Of a stretch of 32,000 nucleotides of DNA, positions 6,578-21,332 are shown one piece after another. Positions within the stretch are counted from its first letter, which is position 1. Every line of letters starts with the position of its first letter. Origin of the DNA: Candidatus Electronema aureum (GTDB lineage Bacteria; Desulfobacterota; Desulfobulbia; Desulfobulbales; Desulfobulbaceae); contig NQJD01000029.1 of NCBI GenBank assembly GCA_004284765.1, positions 1 to 32,000 of the forward strand. The letters are read 5' to 3'. A program made the translations under genes and the position numbers. The notes below the pieces were generated by a model. It had not been told where the DNA came from, ran no database searches, and saw nothing but the letters and a program-made list of their open reading frames with translations.

Positions 6578-7054
6578 TCAGTCCTTATTCCGAACCGTTA
6601 TCACCTCGGCCTTACGAAGAACCGTGTTCCGCGCTGCGTCAAAGTAGCCGCGTTTCAGCACTGCAAGGATTTCTTCGTTCTCCTGCTCAGGGACGCTTTG
6701 CGTGTCCACTACCACACATTGTTCAACCTTGGCTCGGCGATCAGGGAAATGTAACGGCTCAATTTGGCGAGAACCGAGCAAACGGAGCAGCTTGCGTTGC
6801 ACGGCTCTCATGCTGTTGAGCAGACCTTGGCTTGTTTTGTCTAATGCCTCCTGTTTGCGGCGGATATTTTTTTCAATGTTGTCAAAAACATCCAGCACCT
6901 CAAATAACTCGACGAACAGCTCGTGCTCCCGATGCAGACAAAGTTCCTCTTGCTCCTTCACTGACTGCTTCAACTCGACGATTTCTCGCTGAAAAGACAC
7001 TAACTTTTCCCGCAGCAGATCACCGGGACTACTTGTCTTCTCTCCTGTTTTCAT
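6578..7054 (-). CDS. Short GrpE-like nucleotide exchange factor
   Basis: An N-terminal coiled coil is followed by FVELFEVLDVFDNIEK (compare E. coli FINELLPVIDSLDRA). Next come GLLNSMRAVQRKLLRLLGSRQIEPL and a C-terminal ILAVLKRGYFDAARNTVLRKAEVITV (compare [21 protein letters not shown]). I chose the ATG at 7054; a TTG at 7063 would overlap the upstream stop. Confidence 0.65.
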   Translation of the reverse strand: MKTGEKTSSPGDLLREKLVSFQREIVELKQSVKEQEELCLHREHELFVELFEVLDVFDNIEKNIRRKQEALDKTSQGLLNSMRAVQRKLLRLLGSRQIEPLHFPDRRAKVEQCVVVDTQSVPEQENEEILAVLKRGYFDAARNTVLRKAEVITVRNKD

Positions 7055-7059
7055 TATGC

Positions 7060-7320
7060 TCAATCAAAAATCTCCAGCCGCTTGAGAGCATCAGCACTCA
7101 GCGGTTTCTCTCCCCTAACCGGCTGTCGCAGCAGTGGTTCAAGATCGGCAAAATAAATGAACGCCAGCACGGGCCGAGCTGATGGGTCCATCAGCTGTCG
7201 CCGAGCTTCGGCAATTTCGTATGCTGAATGCTGCTTTTCCCGTAACGCTAAGGCAGCGGCCTGCATGATTTCTTGTGCCGATGCTTCTGGGCCGATATTT
7301 AGTATTTTAAAGGGATTCAT
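7060..7320 (-). CDS. Small J-like domain protein lacking the HPD motif
   Basis: 86 aa. NPFKILNIGPEASAQEIMQAAALALREK resembles J-domain helices I-II (DxYxxLGV...AS..EIkkAYrkLA). IAEARRQLMDPSAR resembles helix III-IV (INEAYEVLSDPEKR). No His-Pro-Asp lies between them. GAGG sits 8 nt upstream of the ATG. The gene overlaps the upstream gene by 14 nt. Confidence 0.45.
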   Translation of the reverse strand: MNPFKILNIGPEASAQEIMQAAALALREKQHSAYEIAEARRQLMDPSARPVLAFIYFADLEPLLRQPVRGEKPLSADALKRLEIFD

Positions 7321-8998
7321 GCCGCGCCTCTATCCGCAATCCATCAAGAACGCGCCTGATCCGCCGTACCGCGCCGTGACTGGAGTCAACCGAGCTAACG
7401 CTGTCTAATAGCTCATTTAGCGTGAAAACCGCTGCTTCCTGATCCGCATAATCGCCCCGCTCAATCCGTGCCGCTACCTGCCGGGCAGTTTCAAAAAATT
7501 GCTCAACTGCCTGTGGAAAACGGCTGGCTGTGGCGATGCGGGCTGCTTCGGCAAAGCAGTCCCGGTCAAAGGCTTCGCCTATCTCAGTCAGCGCAAGGTC
7601 GCGGCGTACTTGGTCAAAAATCATTTGGGCAAAGTCATCGTTGGGATTCAGCGCAACCGCCTTTCTCATTGCAGCGTCGAGCAGTTTTGGCGATGCTTCC
7701 TCGCTGCTGCGCAACCGCACGACCTGATTGGTTAGGGTTGAGCAAAACACAGCACCCGTCTCTGCATTTTCCGGCAGAGTCAGAATACCTAAGCAAGCGG
7801 CTAATGCGGTACCGTCCTGATTGTCATCTCGCTCTATTGCCGCGAGTAGCTGTTTCTCCAGCTCTGCTGTCCAATGTGCTGGGCCATTAATCAGAATTTG
7901 CTCCGCTTTCCGGCACTGACCTCTGTACAGATAATGCAGCCCGCAGGCTGTTCTCACCTGCGCCGCACCCCAAGCGACAAAGGGATCATCGATTTCTTCT
8001 AATTCCACCAGCGTGTCCATCGCACCGTCGTAATCACCCTCTCTGACCAGCAGGAGAGCCTGTGCCGCTGATGAATAGACTGCGCCAGCGGCCATCCATT
8101 TGCTGCTATCAGCAAAAGCATCCCGGCTCTTTTGAATCAAGATGAAAAGCTGATCAGCAATCTTGGCCTGCAACGCCAGTGCCGGTGTAAAGATCGGCAT
8201 TGCGGATAATCGGCTCATCCGTCGCAGCAAGGCAAGTTCCTCCTCCCACTGCCAGAGCAAAGAACCACCGTTGTTTAGTTGCCGTGCTGCTTGCCTGCGC
8301 AGCACGTCCACGCCAAAATCAAGCAGGGCCTGCCGCTGCGGCTCAGACTGTGGCCCAACCTCTGGGTGAAAAAGCAGCGATAGACAGCAGTTGATGAAAT
8401 GCCGCGCTTGCGCCGTCGGAATCGTTATGTCTGCTTCCATCATGAGCTGGCAAGCGGCCTTGGCCTGCACGGCCAGCGCGGTAGGCTGAAGCCAGTCGGT
8501 CTCATCAGCCGAAGCAAAGATTTCTTCTATCTGTTCTTCCTGCCAAAGCCGAGCCAAACGCAGGCTGCGACAGCGAGTCAGCAGCCCGCCACCACTCGGC
8601 AGATAAGCCAAGGAAAATTCCTCCAACAGCTGGCGAACTTCAGCTTCCTGTTTCAGTGGATTTTCATCAAGGCGGCAATGCAGTTCCTCAATCAGCAACA
8701 AGCTGACCTGTTCTTTTTGAACAATAAAATCAGGATGAGTGCAGTCAAGCTGCCGCCAGAGCCGCAGGCAAGCAATAGCATCGCCCAGCTTCACCTGAGC
8801 AAAACCGGCATGATAGAGATCAGCGGGAGCGGATAGGTTTGCCTCGGTATAGGCATCTGCCGCCTGCTGCCACTGTCCGGCCAGCAGAGCATAGCGGGCT
8901 ATCTGGAGGAATTGGGTCGGATCAGGATAAACCGTGACCTTAGTTCTGCAAAATTTCCTAACCCATGATAGAACAACAGCAAAAACCTTGCCTCTCAT
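7307..8998 (-). CDS. Large all-helical (TPR-like) repeat protein of unknown function
   Basis: 563 aa, Ala/Leu/Gln-rich. It shows repeated helix-pair patterns (for example YALLAGQWQQAADAYTEA, LLLVREGDYDGAMDTLVE, HYLYRGQCRKAEQIL). I recognise no catalytic motif. The coding call rests on length, composition and coupling to the downstream J-like gene. Confidence 0.6.
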   Translation of the reverse strand: MRGKVFAVVLSWVRKFCRTKVTVYPDPTQFLQIARYALLAGQWQQAADAYTEANLSAPADLYHAGFAQVKLGDAIACLRLWRQLDCTHPDFIVQKEQVSLLLIEELHCRLDENPLKQEAEVRQLLEEFSLAYLPSGGGLLTRCRSLRLARLWQEEQIEEIFASADETDWLQPTALAVQAKAACQLMMEADITIPTAQARHFINCCLSLLFHPEVGPQSEPQRQALLDFGVDVLRRQAARQLNNGGSLLWQWEEELALLRRMSRLSAMPIFTPALALQAKIADQLFILIQKSRDAFADSSKWMAAGAVYSSAAQALLLVREGDYDGAMDTLVELEEIDDPFVAWGAAQVRTACGLHYLYRGQCRKAEQILINGPAHWTAELEKQLLAAIERDDNQDGTALAACLGILTLPENAETGAVFCSTLTNQVVRLRSSEEASPKLLDAAMRKAVALNPNDDFAQMIFDQVRRDLALTEIGEAFDRDCFAEAARIATASRFPQAVEQFFETARQVAARIERGDYADQEAAVFTLNELLDSVSSVDSSHGAVRRIRRVLDGLRIEARHESL

Positions 8999-9097
8999 TG
9001 GGTTGCTTCCATTTGACAGAACGAGATTTTCCTGTCACTATCTTTATACGGTTTAGCCATTTTTCAACATATTCTATCAAACTTCACGGAGGATTTT

Positions 9098-9424
9098 ATG
9101 CGTAAAACAAAGAAAGCAGCACTCTTAGCCATGCTGCTGTTGTTATCGATAGTTGTCGTGACAGGTGTTCAAGCCGCAGAAAAAGAGATTAAAAAAGACG
9201 AAAAGGTAGATATGGCTACCTACACCTGCGCTGATCTTCTGGCTGAAAACGAAGACGAGGTTGGCATGATTCTATTGTGGGTTGATGGCTATTTGAGCGG
9301 TAAAACCAACGACACGGTCATCAACATGACCTTTATCGGCGAATTAGCTGAAAACGTCGGGAAAAAATGCGGCGAAAACGGAAAAGCCAAATTACTCGAC
9401 GTGGTTAAAGAACTAACGGAATAG
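9098..9424 (+). CDS. Secreted HdeA/HdeB-like small periplasmic protein
   Basis: 108 aa with a signal peptide ending VQA-AE. The motif TYTCADLL is followed by a second Cys 47 residues later (KKCGENG). E. coli HdeA has a comparable disulfide pair, Cys18-Cys66. GGAGG RBS. Confidence 0.55.
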   Translation: MRKTKKAALLAMLLLLSIVVVTGVQAAEKEIKKDEKVDMATYTCADLLAENEDEVGMILLWVDGYLSGKTNDTVINMTFIGELAENVGKKCGENGKAKLLDVVKELTE

Positions 9425-9439
9425 CCCCGAATCGCTAGT

Positions 9440-10777
9440 TCAGCGGAGAATAATTTTGACCGTCTTGCCCGGTATGACCTCCTGATTGCCGTAAAAAATC
9501 ATGCTTGAATATCTGGGCAGAAAAAATCGAGCATAGATGGAACGCCACGTCTCGTCGGACCGCACTTGGTATTTCCAGAGTATGAGGCCCTCGCGCTGTT
9601 CAATCTTGCGTTGATAAAAGGCGGCAGCCTCGCGGCGGTCAGTAAAAAGTCGCACCGAGCTGCCCTTTCTGATGAAGCCGAGGAAAATGTGGGGGTTCTG
9701 CTCCATTACCACCGGATAATATTTGCGGTTGCCGTAGAACCGCTCGGCAATGTCCCAAGCATTTTCTCCGTCCTTGACTAAATAAGAGAACGTTCCTCCG
9801 CGCTGTATTGGCGCGAAATTCTGCACCTGTTCAGCAGCAGGAGTACCGACTGTTTCCATCGCTATCGACTTCACCCGGTGCTTCCTGTACTTAGGCGTAA
9901 GAACTACAGGCGGCGTTTCCGGTAGAACGGCCAGTTCAGCATTGTTTTCCGATGGAATAGCCTGCGCTACGGCTAAAGCCTGTGGTTCAGCTACTACCAC
10001 AGCCGCTTCTACTTCTGCCGGATTTGCTGATTTTTCCTCCGCTGGTGCCAATGGCACTGCTTGCTCCGTTGTTTTTTCAACAGGAACTGGTGGTGGCATC
10101 TTACTGCCTAACAACTCTACCTCGGCTGTGTCCGGGAGTACCTCCTCTCGAACAACTTTTACAAGTTTTGTCGCCTCGTTCTCAGCTTCTACCGTTTTTT
10201 TCTGATCTACAGGAAGCTCATCCGGCACAAGGGCACGCTCGCTTTTTTCCTTGGCGACAACAGGCACAGCATTCTCCTCTGTATTCTTGCTGGAAGTCTG
10301 CTCGTGGTTTTCGCCTACAAGTTCCTGCTTTGCTGCGACAGTTTCCGTCTCTCGCTCATCCAAGATGCGCACCTGAGCATCAATATGAATTTTGCTTTCA
10401 GGAGGCAGCACCGGTTCGACAACGTTTTTATTTTCTGGCGCGGATGACAATGACTCTTCGTGCTTTTTCTTCATTGCCGCCCGCTGTTCCGCCGCCTTGA
10501 GTTCGGCTAACTGGTGGTCTAATTCAGACAAACGACTTTTCATGCTCACTGATAGACCAGCAAGGAGCAACAGGACAGCAGTCACAATGATCGCGATAGC
10601 AACCCAAGGAAAACGACGTTTGGGTAGCAGAGCTGCTGCTGTTTTGGCCGCTGCTGGGTCAGAGAGCGAATCTAAGGCTTGAAAACAGGTCAGGTCTGCA
10701 TCGCACTGAGGGCAGCTGCCGCAGTTCGGCGGTAAGCCGTGCCGTCCACAAACCGGACAGGTGTGCGTCTGACTCAT
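9440..10777 (-). CDS. Bitopic envelope protein: N-terminal zinc ribbon, one TM helix, coiled coil, long E/P/A/V-rich linker, two C-terminal LysM-like repeats
   Basis: 445 aa. CPVCGRHGLPPNCGSCPQCDADL is followed by the TM segment FPWVAIAIIVTAVLLLLAGLSV. A low-complexity spacer of about 200 aa follows. The C-terminus has YLVKDGENAWDIAERFYGN...VRLF and YQVRSDETWRSIYARFF...GKTVKIIL (LysM-like). The ATG overlaps the Hsp70 stop (ATGA). Confidence 0.75.
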   Translation of the reverse strand: MSQTHTCPVCGRHGLPPNCGSCPQCDADLTCFQALDSLSDPAAAKTAAALLPKRRFPWVAIAIIVTAVLLLLAGLSVSMKSRLSELDHQLAELKAAEQRAAMKKKHEESLSSAPENKNVVEPVLPPESKIHIDAQVRILDERETETVAAKQELVGENHEQTSSKNTEENAVPVVAKEKSERALVPDELPVDQKKTVEAENEATKLVKVVREEVLPDTAEVELLGSKMPPPVPVEKTTEQAVPLAPAEEKSANPAEVEAAVVVAEPQALAVAQAIPSENNAELAVLPETPPVVLTPKYRKHRVKSIAMETVGTPAAEQVQNFAPIQRGGTFSYLVKDGENAWDIAERFYGNRKYYPVVMEQNPHIFLGFIRKGSSVRLFTDRREAAAFYQRKIEQREGLILWKYQVRSDETWRSIYARFFLPRYSSMIFYGNQEVIPGKTVKIILR

Positions 10778-13089
10778 TTGCGAATATCTCGGTGAATTTT
10801 CTGAATGCTGCGACCGTGCTGGTCCAGCACCTCTTCGACTTCTGGCATCACTGCCAGCACCTGTTCAAAACGCAGCTCCTCGCCCGCCTCAGCCGAGGCC
10901 AGCACCTCTGCTGCCGCCCGCATAAAACGCTTGGCCTTATCTGGCTCAGTTTGGTGGCAAATTTCGCAAGCATTCTCAATCTGCGTCAAGGCGTGTACCA
11001 CCTCCAGTCCCGGATTCTCTAAAACATTGGACAGCTCATCCATTGCCTGCATGGTTTCCTCATAGCTTCCTTCTTCATCGGTCTCGCGCAGCTGCTGGAT
11101 TTTTCTCAAAATGCGTTCCTGTAAGGCTGGCGCGATCAGCATTCCATAATCCGCCAACATGCTTTCTGCGTAATAAATCTGGGTTAGCGGAGCTTCCTCG
11201 GCTTCGGAGATGCGCACCGCCTTGTTGATCTTTTCCTCCACCCGACGGCAAGCAGCTCCATCAACCTCACCGGTTTGCGCATCAACCACTTTATGGAGCG
11301 CGCGAATAATACCTTTAGCCCGACAGAGCAAATCGGCCACCGTATAGGTAGAGCAGCCTTTGCGGTCAGCCTCATTAATGATCTGCTCAAGGCGCAGAAA
11401 GAGTCGCTCATCCGCCTTGCCGCGCGAGAGCGTACCTTCCACCTTCCCCTTGAGTTGGCCGACTAAGGCCGCCTGCACTGAAACCAAATTATTTTCATCG
11501 ATGTTCAAAGTGACAGCAAGACGCGGCAATTCTTCCGTCTGCGGCGCGGTTGTGCTATCTCGATCGATGCCTAACCAAAGGTCGCCGATGCGTTCCTCTT
11601 TGTTATTGACCACATTATAAAATTGCATATGCACCAGCTCTTGTTCGGCATCAACAAGCTGAAAAATCTCCGTGCTGGAGCAGGGTAATACACTGTTTTT
11701 TTTCACCAAGAGAAAACGCTGATCATTCTCCAAGCGGATGAAGTAGTCATGGGCCGCTGCATGAACGATATCGACCAGACCATGCTTGGTTGTGTAGGTT
11801 GCGAGATTAAATTGGCAATGCGGGCAGTTGGCGTTATGCTGGGATGTTTCCCCACCGCAGCTCGGACATTCCAGCGTATCTGCTAATCGATGGCTGAGAA
11901 TAGCTGCACCTTCGGCCACTGCCAACATAGGCCGCTCATGGAGTAACACTTTGTCTGCACCAAATTCCTGCCGCAGCGTCTTGATTACACAGGGAATACG
12001 CGAACTACCGCCGACTAAAAGCACATGGTCAATCAAATCCGGGCTGAAATACGCCTCGGCCAGTAAATTTCGCAGCAATCGGAGCATGGTTGTCAGCAAA
12101 GGAGCCAGCATCTCCTCTAACTGTTCTTGGCTCAATTCTGCTTCAATATGAATCGGATCGCCGTCCTCGTCCGTGAGCAAACCAAGCACAGCAATGCAGG
12201 CTTCGGGGCTGTCGCTGAGGGCAATTTTAGCCTTTTCTGCCGCCGTTTTTAGTTCGGCAAGCAAACGATTGCGCTGACTTGGCTCCAGCCGTCCGAGCAG
12301 AGCGCGGAGGCGAACATCATCCATGCCTTCCTTGGCCGCTGTTTCTCGCAGGGCATGGCTAATGATCAGGTTGTCGATGTCCTCGCCACCTAACCACATG
12401 TCGCCGCCTTTGGCCATTTCAATGATCTGGCCGCCGCTGATCGCCAGCAGCGAGAGGTCGAGAGTGCCGCCGCCGAAATCAAAAACCAGCACGGTTTTGC
12501 CTTCGTCACTAGATATCTGATCCACGCCAAAGGAAATGGCTGCTGCTGTCGGCTCGGACAAAAGACGGCTGACTTTGAGACCAGCCAAAGCAGCAGCGGT
12601 GCGGGTGGCGTGCTTTTGTTTATCGTTGAAATAGGCAGGCACGGTGATCACTGCTGTCTCTACCTCATCACCGAGGATACGTTCGGCATCAGCCTTGATT
12701 TTAATGAGAATCTGGGCTGAAATTTCTTCTGGGCTGAACTCTCGTCCTCCGGCAGCAATCGCCAAACTGTTCTGAGAACCGCTGGAATAGGGCGAGAGCG
12801 GACAGCGAAATCTGCCGTTTTTAATCAGTTCTTGCACTTCTGGATCGTGAAAATTGCGTCCAATTAGCCGCTTGACCGCTGTGATAGTGTTCTCCGGTTC
12901 CTGCCGCAGCCATTCCAAAGCGTGGCGACCGACGATGAACTCTGGTTTGCGTATCAGCCGTTTACGAACAGTGACGCAAGAAGGAGTGATGAAGTCACCT
13001 TCTGCATTTTTCAGCACCTCAACCCGCACTTTTTTAATCGCGGCAGCGGAATTGGTAGTTCCCAGATCAATGCCGATGGATTTTTTCAT
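10774..13089 (-). CDS. Atypical Hsp70/DnaK-family ATPase with a zinc ribbon inserted between NBD and SBD and a long helical C-terminal extension
   Basis: NBD motifs are intact: IGIDLGTTNSAAA, VITVPAYFNDKQKHATRTAAALAGL, LSEPTAAAISFG, VLVFDFGGGTLDLSLL, VLLVGGSSRIPCV. CPSCGG-x8-NCPHC (CxxC-x10-CxxC) follows. Then comes a beta-rich SBD-like segment (LVHMQFYN...LAVTLNIDENNLVSVQA) and about 230 aa of helices. I set the start at the ATG at 13089 (MKKSIGIDLG). The ORF-track extension to 13149 overlaps the upstream kinase gene. Confidence 0.9.
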   Translation of the reverse strand: MKKSIGIDLGTTNSAAAIKKVRVEVLKNAEGDFITPSCVTVRKRLIRKPEFIVGRHALEWLRQEPENTITAVKRLIGRNFHDPEVQELIKNGRFRCPLSPYSSGSQNSLAIAAGGREFSPEEISAQILIKIKADAERILGDEVETAVITVPAYFNDKQKHATRTAAALAGLKVSRLLSEPTAAAISFGVDQISSDEGKTVLVFDFGGGTLDLSLLAISGGQIIEMAKGGDMWLGGEDIDNLIISHALRETAAKEGMDDVRLRALLGRLEPSQRNRLLAELKTAAEKAKIALSDSPEACIAVLGLLTDEDGDPIHIEAELSQEQLEEMLAPLLTTMLRLLRNLLAEAYFSPDLIDHVLLVGGSSRIPCVIKTLRQEFGADKVLLHERPMLAVAEGAAILSHRLADTLECPSCGGETSQHNANCPHCQFNLATYTTKHGLVDIVHAAAHDYFIRLENDQRFLLVKKNSVLPCSSTEIFQLVDAEQELVHMQFYNVVNNKEERIGDLWLGIDRDSTTAPQTEELPRLAVTLNIDENNLVSVQAALVGQLKGKVEGTLSRGKADERLFLRLEQIINEADRKGCSTYTVADLLCRAKGIIRALHKVVDAQTGEVDGAACRRVEEKINKAVRISEAEEAPLTQIYYAESMLADYGMLIAPALQERILRKIQQLRETDEEGSYEETMQAMDELSNVLENPGLEVVHALTQIENACEICHQTEPDKAKRFMRAAAEVLASAEAGEELRFEQVLAVMPEVEEVLDQHGRSIQKIHRDIRK

Positions 13090-13115
13090 ACCGTGTCTGT
13101 TCGGAGCAGAGGGGA

Positions 13116-14192
13116 TCAGAGGGCAGAAAGGGTAAAGCTGAAGACGCACCCTCTTTCAGCTTGATTTTCAGCTCGAAGAACACCACCATGTAGCTCAATG
13201 ATTTTTTTCACCACGGCCCAGCCGAGACGGCTATCTTTTCTACTGTCCGCCGGACCTGCTGGATCAGCAAACAAGTGTTCCAGCTCTTTTTCGCTCAAGC
13301 CCGGCCCTTGATCAGCAACCGCCACGCGGACTGCGCTGCCTGCCTGCTCCGCGCTCAAGACAACAACTGAGCCAGCCGGAGAATGCTTAACCGCGTTGCT
13401 CAAGAGATTATCTACCGCTTGTCGAATGCGGCTTGGATCAAGATTGAAAATCGGCAGCGTAGTCAGACGCTCAACAATGACGATTTGTTTCTTTGCTGCT
13501 GCTTGTTGCTGTAGTTGCGCTGCCTGCCGAAGAACTTCTGTGAGCGAGGCAGGCTGCCTGTTGATCTTAAAGGTACCATCACCAACGGCGGAAACATCGA
13601 GCAAGTCGTTGATTAGGCGCTGCATGGCTGTGGCCGTCTCGTTAATGGCCAGCAGGTGCGTATCTATATTACTGCGCATTTCAAAAAAACTGCTATCCAT
13701 CAGCATTTCGGTCATGGTGATAATGTAGCCGAGCGGATTGCGCAAATCATGGGCAGCAATGCGCAAAAAACGATCTTTAATCTTATCTAATTCTAACAAG
13801 CGGTCGTGTGCCTCAACGAGCCGCCTGCCCACAGAAATTCGGCTGTGCAGTTCACCAATATGCACCGGTTTGCTGAGAAAATCATGCGCCCCATGATCTA
13901 AAGCATGAACCACATCCTCCTTGTCGCTTCTACCAGTGAGTAGAATGGTGTAGATCAGCGGCACAGCACCTTTTTCCTGCGCATTGAGCCGAGAGCAGAT
14001 TTCTACCCCATCTAAGCCGGGCATCATCCAGTCTAACACCGCGATTCGGGGTGGTTCTGGGCTGCGCAGGATGGTCATGGCCTCCAGTCCATCCGCAGCC
14101 TCAATCACCTCATAGCCCCAGCGGGCCGCGCAATGCCGGAGCAAAATTCGGGTAGAAAGTTCATCGTCGGCGATCAGTAGTTTCATGGACAT
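13116..14192 (-). CDS. Hybrid receiver (REC) - histidine kinase (HisKA + HATPase_c) without a recognisable sensor domain
   Basis: 358 aa. REC: MKLLIADDE...IAVLDWMMPGLDG...K. H-box FLRIAAHDLRNPL. ATPase boxes NLLSNAVKH, VADQGPGLS, GWAVVKKIIELHGG. No TM segment is visible. Confidence 0.9.
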   Translation of the reverse strand: MSMKLLIADDELSTRILLRHCAARWGYEVIEAADGLEAMTILRSPEPPRIAVLDWMMPGLDGVEICSRLNAQEKGAVPLIYTILLTGRSDKEDVVHALDHGAHDFLSKPVHIGELHSRISVGRRLVEAHDRLLELDKIKDRFLRIAAHDLRNPLGYIITMTEMLMDSSFFEMRSNIDTHLLAINETATAMQRLINDLLDVSAVGDGTFKINRQPASLTEVLRQAAQLQQQAAAKKQIVIVERLTTLPIFNLDPSRIRQAVDNLLSNAVKHSPAGSVVVLSAEQAGSAVRVAVADQGPGLSEKELEHLFADPAGPADSRKDSRLGWAVVKKIIELHGGVLRAENQAERGCVFSFTLSAL

Positions 14193-14479
14193 GGTGCGTT
14201 TTTTTTCAAAAGACGGGGAAAAGGTGACGTGTCAACGTAAAGTAAAAACACAATGAAGTCAACACGAACAGCCAGTAACTGCGAGCATCTTCCGCAGATA
14301 TTTTTCCTGCCAGCAAGTTGCCTGTTGCTCATTTTCAGAGGTATCATATATGATGGCAGCCTAATTTTGGTGTATTATACTCAGACAGCGGCGGATTGTA
14401 TATATTTTGGAAAAAATGAGCCAGCAGCGGCGCATCTTGCGCAGTTATTCAGCCTTTGTTTTTTGGCAAGAACAAAATC

Positions 14480-15076
14480 ATGACCACTGATACCGGATTT
14501 TTGCTCTACGCCGCTCTGTACCGATTGGCTGTGCTGGCAGTTGGTGCGTTGTCTATTTGGCTGGGCTTTCGTTTGTTCAGCAATGCCAAGCAAGAGAACA
14601 GCTCGGCTGATGGCTCCGTCAGCGCGGAAGGCGGTGGTTTCAAGCTGGCCTTCACCAATTTGCTGCCCGGAACTTATTTCGCGTTGTTCGGCACGGTGAT
14701 CATCAGCGTAATGCTATGGAAAGGCGAGCCGCAATTCTTTCAGCAGGAACTCAAGGAGCTGACCAAAGGCGAGAAGACAGTCACGACAACAGAATTGCGC
14801 ACCAGCATAGAACTGGAATGGAAAAAGCTGGATAAGTCCGGCATCACGCTGGCGGAAGCAGCCGAGACTATGGAAACCATTGCCAAGCTGCTGCGGCAGG
14901 AAAACCGCATCGGCGAAGCAGTGGCGATGGCAAAGCTGGCGGCTTTGTACGGCAAAGAAGAAGGCAGGGCGGAGCGTCTTGATTTGCTGGCTGAACTGCT
15001 GCGGGCAAATGGCAATGAGGAGGAGGCAGTGCAAACCGAGCAGGCCGCCGAATCCTTGCGGAGGCCAGAGAAATGA
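14480..15076 (+). CDS. Two-TM membrane protein with a helical, E/A/K-rich C-terminal domain
   Basis: TM1 FLLYAALYRLAVLAVGALSIWLGF and TM2 LLPGTYFALFGTVIISVMLW. The tail is helical (AEAAETMETIAKLLRQENRIGEAVAMAKLAALYGKEEG...). The stop overlaps the caspase-gene ATG (ATGA). I preferred the ATG at 14480 over the TTG at 14456. There is no clear SD. Confidence 0.55.
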   Translation: MTTDTGFLLYAALYRLAVLAVGALSIWLGFRLFSNAKQENSSADGSVSAEGGGFKLAFTNLLPGTYFALFGTVIISVMLWKGEPQFFQQELKELTKGEKTVTTTELRTSIELEWKKLDKSGITLAEAAETMETIAKLLRQENRIGEAVAMAKLAALYGKEEGRAERLDLLAELLRANGNEEEAVQTEQAAESLRRPEK

Positions 15077-16476
15077 AGCTGCGCGGAAGACGCTTGCTGC
15101 TGCTGATCGCGCTGATCGCGCTGGCCGTGCTGCCTGCGGCGGCGCAGGCGCAGACAGCTTCCGGCTTTGGCCGTTGTTTTCATGCCGTGGTGATTGGGTG
15201 TCAGAATTACAAGCATCTCAGGACGCTGAAAACGCCGCTGGCTGATGCTAAAGCGGTCGCTAAGGTGCTGAAAGAGCAGTATGGCTTCACGGTGAACTTG
15301 CTGTTGGACAAAAACAGGGACGAAATTATGCTGGCCCTGTCCGAGCTGCGCAAAACCATGACTGCGGAAGAGGACAGCCTGCTGATCTACTACGCCGGAC
15401 ACGGCTATTTGGACGAGGCGAGCGGAGCGGGGTACTGGCAGCCCGTGGATGCGGAGAAGGACAACATTGTTTATTGGCTTCCGACCTCAGAAATCAGCAA
15501 TTTGCTCAGAGCAATCCGCGTTCGGCACGTGCTGGTGGTGGCAGATTCTTGCTATTCAGGGGAAATCGTCATGCGCAAATCAGAGGCGCAGCTTCCCGCC
15601 GCCGTCAGCAATGACGAATGGCTGCGGCGGATGCAGGCGAAACGGTCGCGCCAAGCCTTGACTTCCGGCCTGAAAGAGCCTGTAATGGACGGCGGGGGCG
15701 GCGGCCATTCGATCTTCGCCAAGGCGTTGCTGGAGGCATTGCGGGAAAACCGGCAGATACTGGACGGAACAAGACTGTTCAGCCTCATCAAAGATCCGGT
15801 CTCGAACAACGCCCTGCAACAGCCCGTGTATGACTCCATCCCGATGACCGGGCATGAGATGGGAGATTTTCTGCTGGTGCCGAAGGAGTTGCAGAAGGGA
15901 GGAATTCAGGCGCAGCCGGAGCACAAGGCGGATTTGAGTTTTCTGCAACGCAGCGGCGGTAACAGCGCAGCCACGCTGCCAGAAAAACCGCGCCAGAATG
16001 CCGACCTACAGAAAGGCAGAACTATTGGGCAATATATTGATTATGGCGACGGCACGATAACTGACACGAAAAGCGGCTTGATGTGGAAACGCTGTCCAGA
16101 AGGTTTATTCGGCGTGAACTGCGAAGAGGGCAAGATTGAAACCTATAAATGGGATGATGTGTTTCAGCGTTTCAAGAATATCGAATACGCAGGCTATTCT
16201 GACTGGCGGCTGCCGACCATTGCTGAACTGAAAACTTTGGTATATTGCAGCAATGGAGTTAAAGACAAAGATTACGGTCGCTGCAACGAGGGGTCTGAAG
16301 AACCGACGATCAATCAACAGGCTTTTCCGAATACTGAGGCAAATTACTTTTGGTCCGGGTCGCCGCATGCCGACAATTCGGACCTTGCGTGGTACGTCCA
16401 TTTTGCCTATGGCAGTTCCTCCATCAGCAACCGCGTCAACAGCGATGCGGTACGTCTGGTGCGCGGCGGATGGTAG
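15073..16476 (+). CDS. Secreted caspase-like (peptidase C14) protease fused to a DUF1566/Lcl-C-terminal-like domain
   Basis: 467 aa with signal peptide MKLRGRRLLLLIALIALAVLPAAAQA. The caspase His/Cys dyad contexts are LLIYYAGHGY and VLVVADSCYSGE. The C-terminal part has GLMWKRCPEG...YSDWRLPTIAELKTLVYC...FWSGSP...AWYVHFAYGS...VRLVRGG, typical of DUF1566. Confidence 0.85.
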   Translation: MKLRGRRLLLLIALIALAVLPAAAQAQTASGFGRCFHAVVIGCQNYKHLRTLKTPLADAKAVAKVLKEQYGFTVNLLLDKNRDEIMLALSELRKTMTAEEDSLLIYYAGHGYLDEASGAGYWQPVDAEKDNIVYWLPTSEISNLLRAIRVRHVLVVADSCYSGEIVMRKSEAQLPAAVSNDEWLRRMQAKRSRQALTSGLKEPVMDGGGGGHSIFAKALLEALRENRQILDGTRLFSLIKDPVSNNALQQPVYDSIPMTGHEMGDFLLVPKELQKGGIQAQPEHKADLSFLQRSGGNSAATLPEKPRQNADLQKGRTIGQYIDYGDGTITDTKSGLMWKRCPEGLFGVNCEEGKIETYKWDDVFQRFKNIEYAGYSDWRLPTIAELKTLVYCSNGVKDKDYGRCNEGSEEPTINQQAFPNTEANYFWSGSPHADNSDLAWYVHFAYGSSSISNRVNSDAVRLVRGGW

Positions 16477-16530: not shown

Positions 16531-17079
16531 ATGATATTCAACCCGGAAATCTACCGCCGCCGCTCCATCCGTCTGCCCGGTTACGATTACACCAGAGCGG
16601 GCGCGTATTTCATCACCGTATGCGCCAGCGGCAAGGAATGCCTGTTCGGTGCGGTGGAAAACGGGCAAATGCGGCTGAATGATGCCGGTCGGATTGCCGA
16701 TCAATGCTGGCACGACATTCCATTGCATTTTCATCATGCGATATTGGACGAATGGGTGGTAATGCCGAATCATGTGCATGGGATTGTTGTTCTTGACCAT
16801 TGTCGTAGGGACACGGCATGCCGTGTCCCTACGACAATGGCGACAGCGGAACAATTTGGCCGTCCAGTTGCTGGCTCGATTTCAACCATTGTCCGTTCAT
16901 TCAAATCCGCTGTCACCCATCATCTCAACAAATTGCATGGTGCCGTCGGCGAAAAAATCTGGCAGCGCAATTTCTACGAACACATCATCCGCAATGAAAC
17001 AGAATTGCACGGCATCCGCGAATACATCCAGAACAATCCCGCCAAATGGGAATTGGATGAACTGCATGTCGCAGTGTAG
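16531..17079 (+). CDS. REP-associated tyrosine transposase (RAYT; IS200/IS605-like Y1 HUH enzyme)
   Basis: 182 aa. YDYTRAGAYFITVCASGKECLFG is followed by the HUH motif in VVMPNHVHGIVVL. The Tyr region is IWQRNFYEHIIRNETELHGIREYIQNNPAKWELD. The ORF contains a 14-codon palindrome-encoded segment (HCRRDTACRVPTTM). Confidence 0.85.
   Translation: MIFNPEIYRRRSIRLPGYDYTRAGAYFITVCASGKECLFGAVENGQMRLNDAGRIADQCWHDIPLHFHHAILDEWVVMPNHVHGIVVLDHCRRDTACRVPTTMATAEQFGRPVAGSISTIVRSFKSAVTHHLNKLHGAVGEKIWQRNFYEHIIRNETELHGIREYIQNNPAKWELDELHVAV
16798..16839. repeat. 42-bp perfect palindrome (REP copy 2 plus 7-bp extended arms) inside the RAYT coding sequence
   Basis: CATTGTCGTAGGGACACGGCATGCCGTGTCCCTACGACAATG equals its own reverse complement. 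Its core is identical to 16473..16500. 42 nt equals 14 codons, and the RAYT frame is maintained. Confidence 0.9.
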
Positions 17080-17133: not shown

Positions 17134-18867
17134 ATGACCAACCGAGCCATACTGCTCCGGCTGCGCGACGTGCTGCGGCCTTACAGCGGCAAGCTGCTCA
17201 TCGCCATGGCCGCGATGATCGTAGTCGCCCTGTTCAACGCCGCCCAAGCCTACATGGTGCAACCGCTGCTGGACAAGATTTTTTATGAAAAGAACGCTGC
17301 TTGGCTGACCGCGCTGCCGCTGGCCCTGCTGGCGATTTTTTTCGTCAAAGGGGTGTTTTATTTCTTCTATTCCTACCTGCTCGAATGGGTTGGGCAGTCG
17401 GTGATCAAAGACCTGCGCAACAGCCTCTACGGCCATCTCCATGAGCTGTCGATGGGCTTTTTTTACAAGAATTCCACCGGCGAACTGATCTCGCGGATTA
17501 TGAACGACGTGGCCATGCTCCAAGGCACGGTCTCGCACGCCCTGATCTACGTCCTGCGCGATTTTTTCAGCGTGGCCGGGCTGCTGGTGGTGATTTTTTA
17601 CATGGACTGGCGGCTGGCCTTGGTCTCGCTTGTTTTCATTCCGATGGCCGCAGTGCCGATTGTGGTTTTCGGCAAGAAATTCCGCCGCATCAGCACCCGC
17701 TACCAGCAGGGCATGGGCGAGGCGAGCAATTTCCTCAACGAGACCATCCGGGGTGTCCGCATCGTCAAGGCCTTTTGCGCCGAGGAGCAAGAAAAACACC
17801 GCTTTGCGGCCAAGATGCAGCAGCTTTTCGACACCCTGATGAGCGAGACCCGCTACCGCAGCCTTGCCCATCCACTGATTGAATTTCTCGGCGGCATCGG
17901 CATGGCCCTGATCATCTGGTTTGGCGGCAGCGAGGTGCTGAAGGGCAACGCCACGCCCGGCACCTTCATGTCTTTTCTCACCGCTTTGGTCATGCTCTAT
18001 GAGCCGATCAAGGGCGTGAGCAAGATCAATTCAACGGTGCAGTCGGGCATGGCTGGCGCGGCCCGCATCTTCGCGCTCTTGGACACCGAGCCGGAAATCC
18101 GCGAGAAAGCGCAGCCGGTCGAGCTGCCGCCCTTCAGCCGCCAGATTGAATTCCGCAAGGTCAGCTTCGCCTATCAGCCCGGCGAGCTGGTGCTGCGCGA
18201 TGTCAGCCTGACAATTGCGCGGGGCGAGGTGGTGGCCTTGGTCGGGCCGTCGGGCGGCGGCAAAAGCTCCTTGGCCAGCCTGCTGCCGCGCTTTCACGAG
18301 GTCACTGACGGCGCAGTCCTGCTCGACGGCCACGATCTGCGCGACCTCAGCCTGCGTTCGCTGCGCAGCCAGATTGCCATTGTCACCCAGCAGACGATCC
18401 TGTTTAATGACACCGTGCGCAGCAACATCGCCTACGGCAGCCCGGATTGCACTGAGGAAGAGATCCGCCGGGCCGCCGCCGCTGCCTTTGCCTTGGATTT
18501 CATCGAAGCCTTTCCGCAGGGCTTTGACACCGTGATCGGCGAGTCTGGCGTGCGACTCTCCGGCGGCCAGCAGCAGCGGCTGTCCATTGCCAGAGCGATC
18601 CTCAAGAACGCGCCGATCCTTATTTTAGATGAAGCCACGTCCGCGCTCGACACCGAATCTGAGCGCAAGGTGCAGCAGGCCCTCGACAATCTGATGAAAA
18701 ACCGCACCACCTTGGTCATTGCCCACCGCCTTTCGACCATCAAGAACGCCGACCGCATCGTGGTCATGCAGGACGGACGCATTGCCGAGGAAGGCGACCA
18801 CGACAGCCTGCTCCGGCGCGGCGGCATCTACGAGGGGCTGCACAGCTTGCAGCACGCCGCCCGATGA
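17134..18867 (+). CDS. msbA: ABC transporter permease/ATPase, MsbA-like lipid A flippase
   Basis: 577 aa. A six-helix ABC-exporter TMD (FFYKNSTGELISRIMNDVAML resembles E. coli MsbA FFDKQSTGTLLSRITYDSEQV) is followed by an NBD. The NBD has Walker A GPSGGGKSS, signature LSGGQQQR and Walker B ILILDEATSALD. The LPS gene context supports MsbA over a generic exporter. Confidence 0.8.
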   Translation: MTNRAILLRLRDVLRPYSGKLLIAMAAMIVVALFNAAQAYMVQPLLDKIFYEKNAAWLTALPLALLAIFFVKGVFYFFYSYLLEWVGQSVIKDLRNSLYGHLHELSMGFFYKNSTGELISRIMNDVAMLQGTVSHALIYVLRDFFSVAGLLVVIFYMDWRLALVSLVFIPMAAVPIVVFGKKFRRISTRYQQGMGEASNFLNETIRGVRIVKAFCAEEQEKHRFAAKMQQLFDTLMSETRYRSLAHPLIEFLGGIGMALIIWFGGSEVLKGNATPGTFMSFLTALVMLYEPIKGVSKINSTVQSGMAGAARIFALLDTEPEIREKAQPVELPPFSRQIEFRKVSFAYQPGELVLRDVSLTIARGEVVALVGPSGGGKSSLASLLPRFHEVTDGAVLLDGHDLRDLSLRSLRSQIAIVTQQTILFNDTVRSNIAYGSPDCTEEEIRRAAAAAFALDFIEAFPQGFDTVIGESGVRLSGGQQQRLSIARAILKNAPILILDEATSALDTESERKVQQALDNLMKNRTTLVIAHRLSTIKNADRIVVMQDGRIAEEGDHDSLLRRGGIYEGLHSLQHAAR

Positions 18868-21332
18868 GCAGGCTCCGCAGCGGCGCAGGCCGGGCCAATG
18901 TCTGGCTGCCGGGCCTGCTCGCCTTTGCCCTGCCGCTTTCCACCTCGGCAGTGTCGGCAGTCGCCCTGCTAATCCTCCTGCTCTGGCTGATCGAAGGGAA
19001 TTTCCTGCTCAAGCTGGCCGAGACCCTCTTCACGCCAGTCGCGGCGACAGTGCTGGGATACTTGGCCCTGCTCTGCCTCGGCCTGCTCTGGACAGCAAAC
19101 CCGGCGGACGGCCTCAGCGTCCTGCAAAGCCACTGGAAGATTGCCCTGCTGCCGGTCTTCCTCACCGCTGTCCGCCACGAACGGCGCGCCTTCTACCTGA
19201 GCTGCTTCATCGCCGGGATGAGCGCGGCCATGCTCCTCACCTTCTTGGTCTGGCTCGGCCTTGTCCAGTACGCCGATGTCAGCCCGGCGCATCTCACGCC
19301 CAAGACCTTTCACGTCGTCTACAACCCTCTGCTGGCCTTCGCCATCTACCTGACCTTGCACAAGGCAGTCTGGGAGGAGCCAAGGCGGCGGGCGCGGGCG
19401 GGCCTCTTCGCGCTGGCCGGGCTGATGAGCGTCAACATGTTTATGACCGAGGGCCGCACCGGGCAGGCCGCCTTCTTCGTCCTCCTCAGCCTCTTTCTCC
19501 TGCAAGTCTTTGGCCGGAAGCGCGTGCGGGCGGTACTCCTCCTCTGTCTGCTGCTGCCTGCGGGCATCGCTGCCGGCTATGTAGCCAGCCCGGTCTTTCA
19601 GCAGCGGGTTGACTTAGCCCTGAGCGAAGCCTCCGGCTTTCACGACAACCCCAACACCTCAGTGGGTCTGCGCCTTCAGTTCTGCCAGAACGCGCTTGCC
19701 CTCATCCGCCAGCAGCCCTGCCTCGGCGTGGGCACCGGCGATTTCAAAGCCGCCTACGGTCTGGTCAACCAGCAGCGCAGCCCGCACTGCGTCAGCACCG
19801 ACAACCCGCACAACCAGTACCTCTTGAGCGCGGCGCTGCTCGGCCTGCCCGGCCTGCTCATCCTGCTGCTGGTCTTCTTCCTCATGCTGCGGCAGGCCCG
19901 CTCTGAGCAGGAGGACAGCCTCTGCCGTGCGCGTTTCGCCTTCCCGCTCTTCTTCGCAGTCATCATGCTGGCGGAGTCCTATCTCAAGGTCTATCAGACC
20001 GCCTTCCTCTTCGCCCTGATGACCGCTGTGCTGTACAAAAAAAAGCCACTGCCGCAGGCCGAGGGCCGCAGCTGGCTGATTCTCTCCTACCGGGCCAACA
20101 TCCCCGGTTCAGCCTGCTCGCAGCATCTGGACGACCGGCTGCCGCACTTGCAGGCCCAAGGCATTGAACCGGTGCTGCTCACCGGCCCGGCTGGTCTTGC
20201 CCACCCGACATGGCGGCACTTCCGCACTGTCAGCCTCGCGCCCTCCGGCCTCCGCTTCGAGCTGCGCCATTACCTCCGACGCCGACTGCGCCACCGCTGG
20301 CAGTTCAAGCTGGTTGAGACCCTGCTCCTCCTGCCGGTGCTGCCCTTCTACCTGCTGGAGAAGATCGTCGTCAATCTGGAGAGCGAATGGTCCTGGGGCC
20401 TGCTTGCCTCGCTGCGCGGCCTGCTGCTCTGCCGCCAGCTCAGGCCGGAGCTGGTTTACTCGACCGGCGGCTCGGCCTCGGCCCATGTCGCGGGCCTGCT
20501 GATCAAGCGCTGGACTGGCATCCGCTGGATCGCTGAGACCCAAGACCCGCTCGTGCACGACCAAGGCTGGCGACGCAGCCGTCTCGCTCTGCTGCTGTAT
20601 ACGAATCTGGAGCGGCGCATCTGCCAGCAAGCCGACCTCTTCGTCTTTCTCGTCGGCGCGGCGCTGGAGCACTGCCGCCAGCGCACGGGCGGCGGCAGGC
20701 TGGCTGTAGTCTATCCCGGCGCGGAGCCGTCCTGGTTCGGGCAGCAGGAGCTATACAGCAAAGGCGGCCGCTGCTCCTTCGCGCACTTCGGCTCGCTCTC
20801 CGGCACGCGCAACCTGGCAGTCTTCTTCCAGGCACTGGAGCAGGTGGTCAGCGGCAGGCCGGAGCTGCGCGGCAGGGCGCAGGTGGACGTGTACGGCTCC
20901 TTTGACAGCCTGTCGGAGCGGGAGATGCAACGCCTGCGCCTGCACGACCTCGTCAGGGTGCATGGGCCGGTGCCGCGAGAGGAGGCCATAGCCCGAATGC
21001 AGCAGGCAGACTGCCTGCTCTTAGTGCAGAACATCATCTACTTCTCCTGCGAGACCATCCCGTCCAAGGTCTATGAGTACCTGCTCACAGGCCGCCCGAT
21101 CCTCGGCCTGCTGCATAATAATAAGGAGCTGGCCGCTATGCTGCGGGACAGCGGCCATCGCGCCACGCCTGCCGATGACGTGCAGGCCACAGCCGCAGCC
21201 ATCGCCGCGATCTTGGACGACTGGGCTGCGGATAAGCTGACAGCCGCTATGGCGGTGGACAGGCCCTGGACTGTCGAGGCGGCGGTGCGCAAGCTGATCT
21301 GCCTGAGCGAGGGCTGTAGCTCCTGCGCATGA
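18864..21332 (+). CDS. Fusion protein: O-antigen ligase (WaaL/Wzy_C-like) polytopic membrane domain + C-terminal GT-B glycosyltransferase domain
   Basis: 822 aa. The N-terminal ~400 aa has about 10 or more hydrophobic helices, with MTEGRTGQAAFFVLL and STDNPHNQYLLSAALLG (O-antigen-ligase-type motifs). The C-terminal ~400 aa is soluble with a GT-B-like end (HGPVPREEAIARMQQADCLLLVQ...ETIPSKVYEYLLTGRPILG). ATGA overlaps occur at both gene ends. Confidence 0.7.
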   Translation: MSRLRSGAGRANVWLPGLLAFALPLSTSAVSAVALLILLLWLIEGNFLLKLAETLFTPVAATVLGYLALLCLGLLWTANPADGLSVLQSHWKIALLPVFLTAVRHERRAFYLSCFIAGMSAAMLLTFLVWLGLVQYADVSPAHLTPKTFHVVYNPLLAFAIYLTLHKAVWEEPRRRARAGLFALAGLMSVNMFMTEGRTGQAAFFVLLSLFLLQVFGRKRVRAVLLLCLLLPAGIAAGYVASPVFQQRVDLALSEASGFHDNPNTSVGLRLQFCQNALALIRQQPCLGVGTGDFKAAYGLVNQQRSPHCVSTDNPHNQYLLSAALLGLPGLLILLLVFFLMLRQARSEQEDSLCRARFAFPLFFAVIMLAESYLKVYQTAFLFALMTAVLYKKKPLPQAEGRSWLILSYRANIPGSACSQHLDDRLPHLQAQGIEPVLLTGPAGLAHPTWRHFRTVSLAPSGLRFELRHYLRRRLRHRWQFKLVETLLLLPVLPFYLLEKIVVNLESEWSWGLLASLRGLLLCRQLRPELVYSTGGSASAHVAGLLIKRWTGIRWIAETQDPLVHDQGWRRSRLALLLYTNLERRICQQADLFVFLVGAALEHCRQRTGGGRLAVVYPGAEPSWFGQQELYSKGGRCSFAHFGSLSGTRNLAVFFQALEQVVSGRPELRGRAQVDVYGSFDSLSEREMQRLRLHDLVRVHGPVPREEAIARMQQADCLLLVQNIIYFSCETIPSKVYEYLLTGRPILGLLHNNKELAAMLRDSGHRATPADDVQATAAAIAAILDDWAADKLTAAMAVDRPWTVEAAVRKLICLSEGCSSCA

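Follow-up and report, generated by a model that had tools for sequence, protein, structure and literature searches.

Does the kinase–Hsp70 region of Candidatus Electronema aureum encode a second, dedicated Hsp70 system, and if so, which of its genes belong to that system? The region lies at positions 6578..14192 of a 32,000-nucleotide stretch (contig NQJD01000029.1, positions 1 to 32,000 of the forward strand; assembly GCA_004284765.1), which we will call the window. It contains six head-to-tail genes on the (-) strand and one small gene on the (+) strand. An initial annotation had proposed that all seven form a phospho-regulated machine that acts on a specific client at the membrane/peptidoglycan interface. 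All seven open reading frames (ORFs) are present where it placed them, and its domain calls were reproduced by profiles or predicted structures. The functional unit, however, is a same-strand cassette of five genes, and this cassette is also the unit under selection:

10774..13089, (-) strand: Hsp70 paralogue with an inserted zinc ribbon (ZnR-Hsp70), 771 amino acids (Pfam HSP70, E = 9e-104)
11815..11868, (-) strand: the zinc ribbon within the Hsp70, C408/C411/C422/C425, of the form CxxC-x10-CxxC, with all four cysteines invariant in the orthologue alignment (A1)
9440..10777, (-) strand: anchor protein with a zinc ribbon, a transmembrane helix, and LysM-like repeats, 445 amino acids (alignment A4); the first 4 nt of the gene are shared with the end of the Hsp70 gene
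7307..8998, (-) strand: Hel, a helical-repeat protein with a solenoid like that of tetratricopeptide repeats (TPR), 563 amino acids; the AlphaFold2 model has a mean predicted local distance difference test (pLDDT) of 90.8 and 29 helices
7060..7320, (-) strand: J-like protein, 86 amino acids, with a J fold that has lost the HPD loop; the first 14 nt of the gene are shared with the end of the Hel gene
6578..7063, (-) strand: GrpE-like nucleotide exchange factor, 158 amino acids from an ATG at 7054 or 161 amino acids from a TTG at 7063

Hel is 100% identical to Ca. Electronema aureum CDV28_1298, and the J-like protein is 100% identical to CDV28_1297, which identifies the source of the window as a freshwater cable bacterium. 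We think, with a little more confidence than doubt, that the cassette encodes an accessory, self-contained, membrane-tethered, client-specific Hsp70 machine with a two-part TPR and J-like co-chaperone.

The evidence that these five genes belong together comes from other genomes. When 185,579 species genomes were scanned using a C-terminal profile of the Hsp70, 87 relatives were confirmed, and 80 loci were kept. (We called ORFs ourselves and ran iterated hidden Markov models, or HMMs, of each window protein over the loci. A locus was informative if its contig was long enough.) Counting genes that share the strand of the Hsp70 gene and the order of the window, we found:

anchor after Hsp70: 71 of 72 informative loci, median gap 0 nt
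Hel after anchor: 61 of 63 informative loci, median gap 7 nt
J-like after Hel: 58 of 60 informative loci, median gap -4 nt
GrpE-like after J-like: 46 of 50 informative loci, median gap -4 nt

Chance is no plausible explanation for the clustering, given that dozens of genomes have the five-gene order. The initial annotation would have been abandoned if its genes had shown no conserved linkage elsewhere; instead, the order was kept in 46-71 of 50-72 informative loci, which also ties the anchor and Hel to the Hsp70, as had been suggested. There were four exceptions to the gene order: L005 and L007, which lack the GrpE-like gene after the J-like one; L009, where the operon is broken off; and L082, where the Hsp70 gene stands alone. 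In the explanation that we favor, the five genes are probably co-transcribed.

Most of the loci are from Desulfobacterota (Electronema, Electrothrix, Desulfocapsa, Desulfonema magnum, Desulfobacter latus, Desulfatirhabdium, and SEEP-SRB2). A few are from metagenome-assembled genomes (MAGs) that are labelled as Spirochaetaceae, Elusimicrobia, Nitrosomonas, Thiotrichales, or Sandaracinaceae. We obtained 120 full-length orthologues of the Hsp70, with 50-99% identity, and by an exhaustive profile search the wider family has 214 clusters at 50% identity.

What kind of Hsp70 is this? It consists of a nucleotide-binding domain (NBD, residues 1-402), the zinc ribbon, a linker-like GLVDIV, the beta part of the substrate-binding domain (SBD-beta, residues ~430-560), and a long helical lid and tail. 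The Pfam HSP70 match is limited to the NBD (residues 5-402), which has the actin fold and the phosphate-binding and catalytic residues of the Hsp70 superfamily (PF00012): the counterparts of DnaK's D8, K70, E171, and D194-T199-D201 are kept in the window protein and are conserved in its orthologues. R167 and the GGGTxD motif have counterparts in the window protein as well, so that all of the catalytic and allosteric residues of DnaK that we checked are kept. The SBD-beta and helical lid of the superfamily were recognized from a C-terminal profile and from a BLASTP alignment. The profile (C-terminal 376 residues, alignment A1) matches the SBDs of solved Hsp70 structures, starting at beta-strand 3 and reaching lid helix B (mortalin, E = 7.8e-5), and the BLASTP alignment with E. 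coli DnaK (a sequence entered by hand), with 33% identity over 552 residues, runs through SBD-beta.

Several features set the protein apart. The zinc ribbon lies after the last helix of the NBD and before the interdomain linker, as placed relative to VLLLDV in DnaK: GLVDIV (consensus GV.DIV) aligns with the DnaK linker LLLDV, and the ribbon is an insert of ~25 residues between GLVDIV and the NBD. Compared to DnaK, the C-terminus has an extra helical tail of ~100 residues. The tail ends in IHRDIRK here and in I(H/Y)(R/K)DI(R/T)K in the orthologue consensus, with D373-I374 of alignment A1 being invariant. SBD-beta is unusually invariant among the ZnR-Hsp70 orthologues. The loop that matches residues 285-295 of DnaK, which is the GrpE signature and is lost in HscA and HscC (PMC8215388), retains its length. 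The loop that contacts the J protein in DnaK (around D211) is shorter in ZnR-Hsp70 (ISGGQIIEM); the roles of D211 and of the other DnaK sites are taken from the same review (PMC8215388).

If the organism were divergent enough, then these could simply be its housekeeping dnaK and grpE, and there is no canonical dnaK, dnaJ, or grpE within the 32-kb window. However, the Hsp70 scores far below the cut-offs of the DnaK equivalog families NF001413 and TIGR02350 (340 bits versus 648 and 334 bits versus 822), and the GrpE-like protein scores 21 bits versus 137 for the NCBIfam GrpE equivalog. The family is found in only ~87 of the 185,579 species genomes, while dnaK is present in 98.9% of bacteria (PMC11019930). 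The cassette has no J-protein with HPD, and there is no CIRCE element in the window. Finally, in a relative, a Desulfobulbaceae MAG, a bona fide DnaK is encoded on the same contig as the ZnR-Hsp70, and the two genes are divergent neighbors, ~1 kb apart:

L017, 5887..7827, (-) strand: canonical dnaK, 1057 bits versus the cut-off of 648
L017, 8822..11140, (+) strand: ZnR-Hsp70

The equivalog scores, the rarity of the family, and the canonical DnaK beside the paralogue in L017 led us to reject housekeeping genes, and we give that explanation next to no chance. The sub-cut-off equivalog scores and the L017 pair also uphold the view in the initial annotation that this is a dedicated, non-housekeeping Hsp70 with its own diverged nucleotide exchange factor. 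It is not an HscA either: the scores for the HscA equivalogs were 263 and 261 bits, versus cut-offs of 620 and 709. (Like Pfam's HSP70, the equivalog models for DnaK and HscA align to the NBD.) There was no HscC-specific model among the profile matches when the window protein was scanned against Pfam and NCBIfam.

The same scan gave secondary matches to MreB, MamK, ParM, and EutJ. This raises the question of a cytoskeletal or positioning role, in which the NBD would be a polymerising or scaffolding ATPase that is tethered to the wall by a bitopic partner similar to RodZ or FtsN. RodZ and FtsN have a cytoplasmic domain, one transmembrane helix, and a periplasmic peptidoglycan-binding domain, which resembles the anchor. 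But the MreB-type matches are weak cross-matches within the superfamily (57 bits, versus 348 for HSP70), and the complete SBD-beta and lid, the GrpE homologue, and the protein with a J fold, which are all conserved, are sensible only for an Hsp70 cycle. We consider an actin-like role to be very improbable.

The GrpE-like protein scores 32.5 bits for Pfam's GrpE family (PF01025), versus a cut-off of 25.8, and all 28 of the orthologues that we tested also pass. The profile of this family aligns to residues 95-209 of a solved GrpE (4ANI, E = 3.7e-6). By its gathering score and by this alignment, we count it as a member of the GrpE family, whose fold is a four-helix bundle with a beta domain. As it misses the equivalog cut-off, it represents a diverged subfamily. 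The relationship is visible to profiles only: single-sequence searches with BLASTP or phmmer against E. coli GrpE and the PDB found no match.

The J-like protein is more diverged. Its score for Pfam's DnaJ family (PF00226) is 14.4 bits, versus a cut-off of 27.8, and covers residues 3-21 only. When we compared a profile of 30 sequences to a J-domain alignment with hhalign, the probability was 83%: helices I-III were aligned, and a 10-residue gap took out the HPD loop. The AlphaFold2 model (pLDDT 81.5) has helices at residues 3-7, 15-28, 33-44, and 49-57, and nearly all of its Foldseek matches in the PDB are J-domains (probability ~1, with TM-scores of up to 0.6 on the target). The model, Foldseek, and hhalign agree on the four-helix J fold. 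(A search of PDB sequences with the J-like profile gave coiled-coil noise and a weak match to DNAJC3.) None of 63 J-like orthologues has HPD, as expected from the description of this protein as an HPD-less J-like protein, and no conserved HPD column is seen in any of the five protein families. The initial annotation had made its J-like and GrpE-like assignments depend on profile searches, and these assignments have held up, the GrpE-like one by its Pfam score and the J-like one through hhalign and the predicted structure.

Beyond the J fold, the C-terminus of J-like proteins is a conserved, hydrophobic stretch, L-x-R-L-x-(I/L/V)-F-D (7060..7100 in the window), over which the pLDDT falls to ~55-65. 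This could be a short linear motif for the SBD of the Hsp70 or for the TPR protein.

The model of Hel is all-alpha, with the stacked hairpins and superhelix of a TPR-like solenoid. Foldseek matched it to TPR subunits of the APC/C, P58IPK, Tom70/71, and SPY (E = 6e-5 to 3e-3, with low global TM-scores of 0.1-0.2), and the Tom71 structure that was matched includes the bound tail of an Hsp70 (Ssa1). At the sequence level, Hel does not reach the threshold for Pfam's TPR families (14.4 bits versus 27 for TPR_2). Hel from cable bacteria has 483-641 amino acids and lacks ~100 N-terminal residues, while most relatives have ~690 amino acids. One distant locus links Hel to the J-like protein directly:

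L086, 11497..13008: fusion of Hel and the J-like protein, 503 residues, with the Hel HMM at residues 15-313 and the J-like HMM at 414-475

This natural fusion suggests that Hel and the J-like protein act as one co-chaperone.

From N- to C-terminus, the anchor comprises a ribbon, one transmembrane helix, a linker of variable, low-complexity sequence, and two LysM-like repeats:

10703..10759, (-) strand: zinc ribbon, C7/C10/C22/C25, consensus CPxCG-x11-CPQCDADLxCF; these are invariant columns in alignment A4
10547..10606, (-) strand: predicted transmembrane helix, residues ~58-77, WVAIAIIVTAVLLLLAGLSV, as read from the sequence
9443..9790, (-) strand: two tandem LysM-like repeats, residues ~330-379 and ~401-445, in register with orthologues that match Pfam's LysM

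All of the aligned anchor orthologues have a hydrophobic segment at the equivalent place. Pfam's LysM (PF01476) matches 24 of 31 aligned orthologues (best E = 6e-14); the window copy is below the threshold and has a weak match to NF008399 (LysM) at residues 331-362. We take the window anchor to be a LysM protein because of the orthologues that align in register with it. We infer that the anchor is bitopic, with the ribbon facing the cytoplasm and with periplasmic LysM repeats that bind peptidoglycan. Anchors from cable bacteria have 368-518 amino acids, with a periplasmic linker that is rich in Pro, Glu, Lys, and Ala, while most others have 237-340 amino acids.

We inspected eight distant versions of the system, and these retain the same components. 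L088 and L091 have a permuted order, which runs Hel, J-like, GrpE-like, Hsp70, anchor. The anchor of L085 has TPR instead of LysM, L084 and L087 have short anchors without LysM, and L086 has LysM in its anchor but lacks both the anchor ribbon and the Hsp70 ribbon. The Hsp70 ribbon is found in four of the eight, each time along with an anchor ribbon; L087 and L090 have the anchor ribbon without the Hsp70 ribbon. We had considered strict co-occurrence of the two ribbons as evidence that they are in contact, and this was only partly borne out. Since an anchor ribbon can occur by itself, a contact between the two ribbons is no more than a hypothesis. Similarly, the replacement or absence of LysM in distant versions implies that peptidoglycan binding is dispensable in the wider family. 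The membrane/peptidoglycan interface of the initial annotation therefore applies in so far as the LysM anchor is common, but it is not universal.

How might the machine work? Because of the anchor, it would act at the cytoplasmic membrane, usually tied to peptidoglycan, and would be held at the inner face of that membrane. The Hel/J-like pair would pick or present one specific client or complex at the membrane, the Hsp70 would remodel this client by ATP-driven binding and release, and the short GrpE homologue would reset the nucleotide state of the Hsp70. Without HPD, ATP hydrolysis might be triggered by the housekeeping DnaJ acting in trans, by a non-canonical contact of the Hel/J-like pair, or by the inserted ribbon. 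The near-invariance of SBD-beta hints at co-evolution with just one client, as for HscA and IscU, and the client may be one of the operon's own products. The contact between the Hsp70 tail and the TPR protein, the ribbon-mediated tether, and the operon-encoded client are hypotheses only.

Besides the lack of canonical dnaK, dnaJ, and grpE genes in the window, several observations weigh against an accessory, membrane-tethered, self-contained machine of this kind. In two Electronema genomes, L005 and L007, the J-like gene is not followed by a GrpE-like gene, so a dedicated nucleotide exchange factor may be dispensable, or it may be encoded elsewhere. (In L007, from E. halotolerans, a 1460-amino-acid ORF comes next; in L005, from Electronema sp. 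JC, the neighbor is an opposite-strand ORF for a membrane protein that looks tatC-like by eye.) For the J-like protein, the Foldseek E-values are weak (0.08-1), and the AlphaFold2 model was built on 12 close sequences. The topology of the anchor is read from its sequence. LysM is swapped for TPR in L085 and is absent in L084 and L087, and the anchor ribbons of L087 and L090 occur alone. Also, our ORF calls for the linkage analysis used the longest possible starts, so that overlaps between genes are perhaps overstated.

Some of the parts have counterparts in known Hsp70 systems. Compared to DnaK-DnaJ-GrpE, the NBD, SBD-beta, and lid are homologous (33% identity to E. coli DnaK), the catalytic residues are kept, and a GrpE homologue and a protein with a J fold are encoded beside the Hsp70. 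In contrast, the cassette fails the DnaK and GrpE equivalogs, its Hsp70 has a pre-linker zinc ribbon and a tail that is ~100 amino acids longer and has its own terminal motif, and its J-like protein lacks the HPD loop, the G/F region, and the client-binding domains. It also has an obligate anchor and a TPR-like solenoid, has no CIRCE element, and is rare and patchy.

HscA-HscB and HscC with DjlB or DjlC are more similar in spirit, as these accessory Hsp70s have co-chaperones that are dedicated to them and have co-evolved with them, and they presumably have few clients, and HscC has a shortened D211 J-contact loop, as in ZnR-Hsp70; a membrane-localised function of HscC is an inference of the review (PMC8215388). 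Unlike ZnR-Hsp70, which keeps the 285-295 loop and is linked to a GrpE-like gene in 46 of 50 loci, HscA and HscC have no GrpE signature and no nucleotide exchange factor. HscB, DjlB, and DjlC have HPD, while the cassette's J-like protein does not. HscA and HscC are also shorter (550-620 amino acids versus 771), and the window protein scores just 263 bits versus 620 for HscA. On the side of likeness, DjlB and DjlC are C-terminally membrane-anchored.

The TPR+J co-chaperones P58IPK/DNAJC3 and DNAJC7, and the TPR clamps that bind the C-terminal tails of Hsp70s (Tom70/71, Hop, and CHIP), are another parallel. Hel matches the structures of P58IPK and of Tom71 with the Ssa1 tail; the Hel and J-like genes are adjacent, overlap, and are fused in L086; and ZnR-Hsp70 has a conserved motif at its extreme C-terminus, as do the Hsp70s whose tails are bound by TPR clamps. 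The differences are that Hel has no TPR signal at the sequence level, that the tail is I(H/Y)(R/K)DI(R/T)K and not EEVD, and that the J part lacks HPD.

In the presequence translocase-associated motor (PAM) of mitochondria, which consists of mtHsp70, Tim44, Pam18, Pam16, and Mge1, the Hsp70 is tethered at the membrane and has a GrpE-type nucleotide exchange factor. The functional parts list of the cassette is similar, down to the HPD-less J-like protein: Pam16/Magmas is described as a J-like subunit without HPD (PMC8605242). This is an analogy only, as the anchor is unrelated to Tim44, there is no HPD partner like Pam18, no translocon is linked to the cassette, and the Hsp70 is on the cytoplasmic (cis) side of the membrane. 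By analogy with PAM and with Sec63-BiP, the cassette might be a bacterial membrane-tethered motor for pulling or remodelling, which we see as a rather unlikely extension. If so, the anchor would hold the Hsp70 to places on the inner membrane that are set by the wall, and the TPR-like and HPD-less J-like proteins would gate its ATPase. A specific envelope-spanning client, possibly the anchor itself, would be extracted, unfolded, or assembled, and force or information would be passed between the cytoplasm and the peptidoglycan.

Another second DnaK with a dedicated GrpE homologue is MxDnaK2 (SglK) with GrpS from Myxococcus xanthus (MXAN_6671/6672). These are co-transcribed, the interactors of MxDnaK2 are biased towards membrane-associated proteins, and it is required for a trait other than proteostasis (PMC11019930). 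MxDnaK2 differs in being of the DnaK type, with no zinc ribbon or long tail, and in its two-gene operon, which has the nucleotide exchange factor upstream and no genes for an anchor, a TPR protein, or a J-like protein.

What about the other two genes of the region, and their regulation?

13116..14192, (-) strand: REC-HisKA-HATPase_c hybrid kinase, soluble, 26 nt upstream of the Hsp70 gene
9098..9424, (+) strand: HdeA-like secreted protein, 108 amino acids (Pfam HdeA, E = 7e-17), between the anchor and Hel genes
14374..14402, (-) strand: TATACA-17-TATAAT, the best sigma-70-like match to a promoter; it lies upstream of the kinase gene and is a consensus match only

The initial annotation treated the kinase and the HdeA-like protein as integral partners in the Hsp70 cycle of a phospho-regulated envelope machine. 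The kinase scores above the Pfam cut-offs for all three of its domains (82, 45, and 75 bits for REC, HisKA, and HATPase_c), as expected for a hybrid kinase, and we saw no transmembrane helix or sensor domain in it. It is on the same strand as the Hsp70 gene, and it is adjacent in the window and in six other loci of the Electronema clade (L004-L009), with orthologues that are 68-74% identical. The best promoter-like site lies upstream of it, and different kinases flank two distant versions of the cassette. There is also a precedent in E. coli, where DnaK with the membrane-bound DjlA modulates the RcsC/B phosphorelay. However, the kinase is absent from Electrothrix, Desulfonema, and about 65 other loci. 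The REC-kinase is the largest extra flanking family, at 8 loci, and no flanking family is conserved beyond the five. As the kinase is limited to the Electronema clade, phospho-regulation is at most a clade-specific add-on and not a general feature of the system.

(Ser/Thr kinase genes adjoin both of the permuted versions, at 8234..9802 in L088 and at 10058..11233 in L091. One of the kinases is fused to FHA and TPR, the second to TPR; an M48 peptidase is encoded in L088 as well. With the histidine kinase of Electronema, these kinases make recurrent recruitment of kinases possible.)

The HdeA-like protein belongs to the HdeA/HdeB family (PF06411, 62 bits versus 22) but does not reach the HdeA equivalog (21.5 bits versus 85), and it has a hydrophobic N-terminal leader, a signal peptide, that ends in AAE. 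We found its gene at two loci only, in the window and in a close MAG (L009, 6425..6799, 78% identity). In L009, the Hel, J-like, and GrpE-like genes were not found downstream, and the operon breaks right after the HdeA-like gene. This gene, which is on the opposite strand, looks like an insertion between two genes of the operon and outside of the conserved system. That an HdeA-like acid-stress chaperone would suit the acidification caused by cable bacteria is speculation.

The neighborhood statistics exclude both the kinase and the HdeA-like gene as core partners; they are later, local additions. Of the gene set that was first proposed, the five-gene core stands and these two do not, and we view it as improbable that they are integral to the machine.

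The site at 14374..14402 is a possible promoter for the operon; eight sigma-70-like sites were found, versus 6.0 expected in shuffled sequences. There is no CIRCE-like site in the window with up to 3 mismatches, so heat-shock control was rejected on this ground; sigma-32 and sigma-54 promoters were not scanned. The window has no Rfam families or tRNAs.

The main rival to an envelope-associated chaperone, though a minor one, is that the cassette is a conflict or anti-phage system, in which the Hsp70, its co-chaperones, and the TPR protein would be an NTP-dependent sensor or threshold device. In Actinobacteria and Firmicutes, GAP1-N2 GTPase systems carry Hsp70 and GrpE with DnaJ- or TPR-fused partners (Kaur et al., PMC7159879), and so, as in the cassette, Hsp70 and GrpE occur with J and TPR modules in a dedicated neighborhood. 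The cassette is patchy and is found in changing contexts, sometimes by mobile or defence-type genes such as RAMP genes (in Desulfonema) or PDDEXK_2, Uma2, and transposases (in Electrothrix). The window itself has a caspase-like gene and an IS200 fragment, and L088 and L091 adjoin the Ser/Thr kinase-FHA or kinase-TPR genes. On the other hand, the GAP1-N2 systems are centered on a GTPase, with true DnaJ domains and with FNIII proteins that are fused to DnaJ or TPR, while the cassette has no GTPase, FNIII, or effector: tubulin, nuclease, TIR, and protease are all absent from the conserved set. None of the seven proteins had a meaningful match to the PADLOC-DB 2.0 models, and the defence-like neighbors are not conserved among the loci. 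Instead, the conserved output-like part is the LysM anchor, which points to the envelope. We therefore consider a conflict system to be unlikely, and we favor the membrane-tethered, client-specific machine.

The flanks of the window contain envelope genes (lpxK, lpxC, an msbA-like ABC exporter, an O-antigen ligase-glycosyltransferase fusion, GT9, and GT2) as well as hcp, the caspase-like protein, and the IS200 fragment. Divergent from the operon, at 14456..16476 on the (+) strand, an unannotated ORF of 206 amino acids overlaps the start of the caspase-like protein (467 amino acids, Peptidase_C14 and Lcl_C), and the IS200-type transposase fragment follows at 16531..17079. At ~18000..22000, the GC content is 0.64-0.67, versus ~0.52 elsewhere. 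This stretch spans the end of the msbA-like ABC gene, the O-antigen-ligase/glycosyltransferase fusion (822 amino acids), and the GT9 heptosyltransferase, and it may be a horizontally acquired block for the core of lipopolysaccharide. At 23551..25674 on the (-) strand, a 707-amino-acid protein carries an FGE-sulfatase (formylglycine-generating enzyme-like) domain at its C-terminus, and its ~480 N-terminal residues are unannotated.

Has such a system been described? We did not find a matching system in the literature that we searched, in line with the initial annotation, which did not recognize the gene set as a characterised system; our coverage of the literature was incomplete, so an earlier description is possible. 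Searches for cable bacteria with Hsp70, DnaK, or LysM found nothing relevant, and the papers on cable bacteria that we checked do not mention the cassette. The recognised types of prokaryotic Hsp70 are DnaK, HscA, and HscC (PMC8215388), and other derivatives of DnaK have been termed unexplored 'dark matter' (PMC13580251).

The locus gives one of these derivatives a fixed parts list of five genes, with about 80 loci for comparison. These offer natural variants (the permuted gene order, the fusion of Hel to the J-like protein, and the presence or absence of the zinc ribbon and of LysM) and concrete hypotheses about binding. The cassette is a natural test of how an Hsp70 is driven without an HPD J-domain, and of whether bacteria have co-chaperone logic of the TPR type. 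It also ties a chaperone of the cytoplasm to the cell wall. The conductive fibres of cable bacteria lie in the periplasm, which makes the assembly of their envelope especially interesting, although we do not claim a link to the fibres. If the cassette does prove to be a membrane-tethered motor, then it would be a fourth functional class of prokaryotic Hsp70, besides DnaK, HscA, and HscC, and its TPR partner, C-terminal tail motif, and J-like regulator would show a co-chaperone logic that has so far been deemed eukaryotic.

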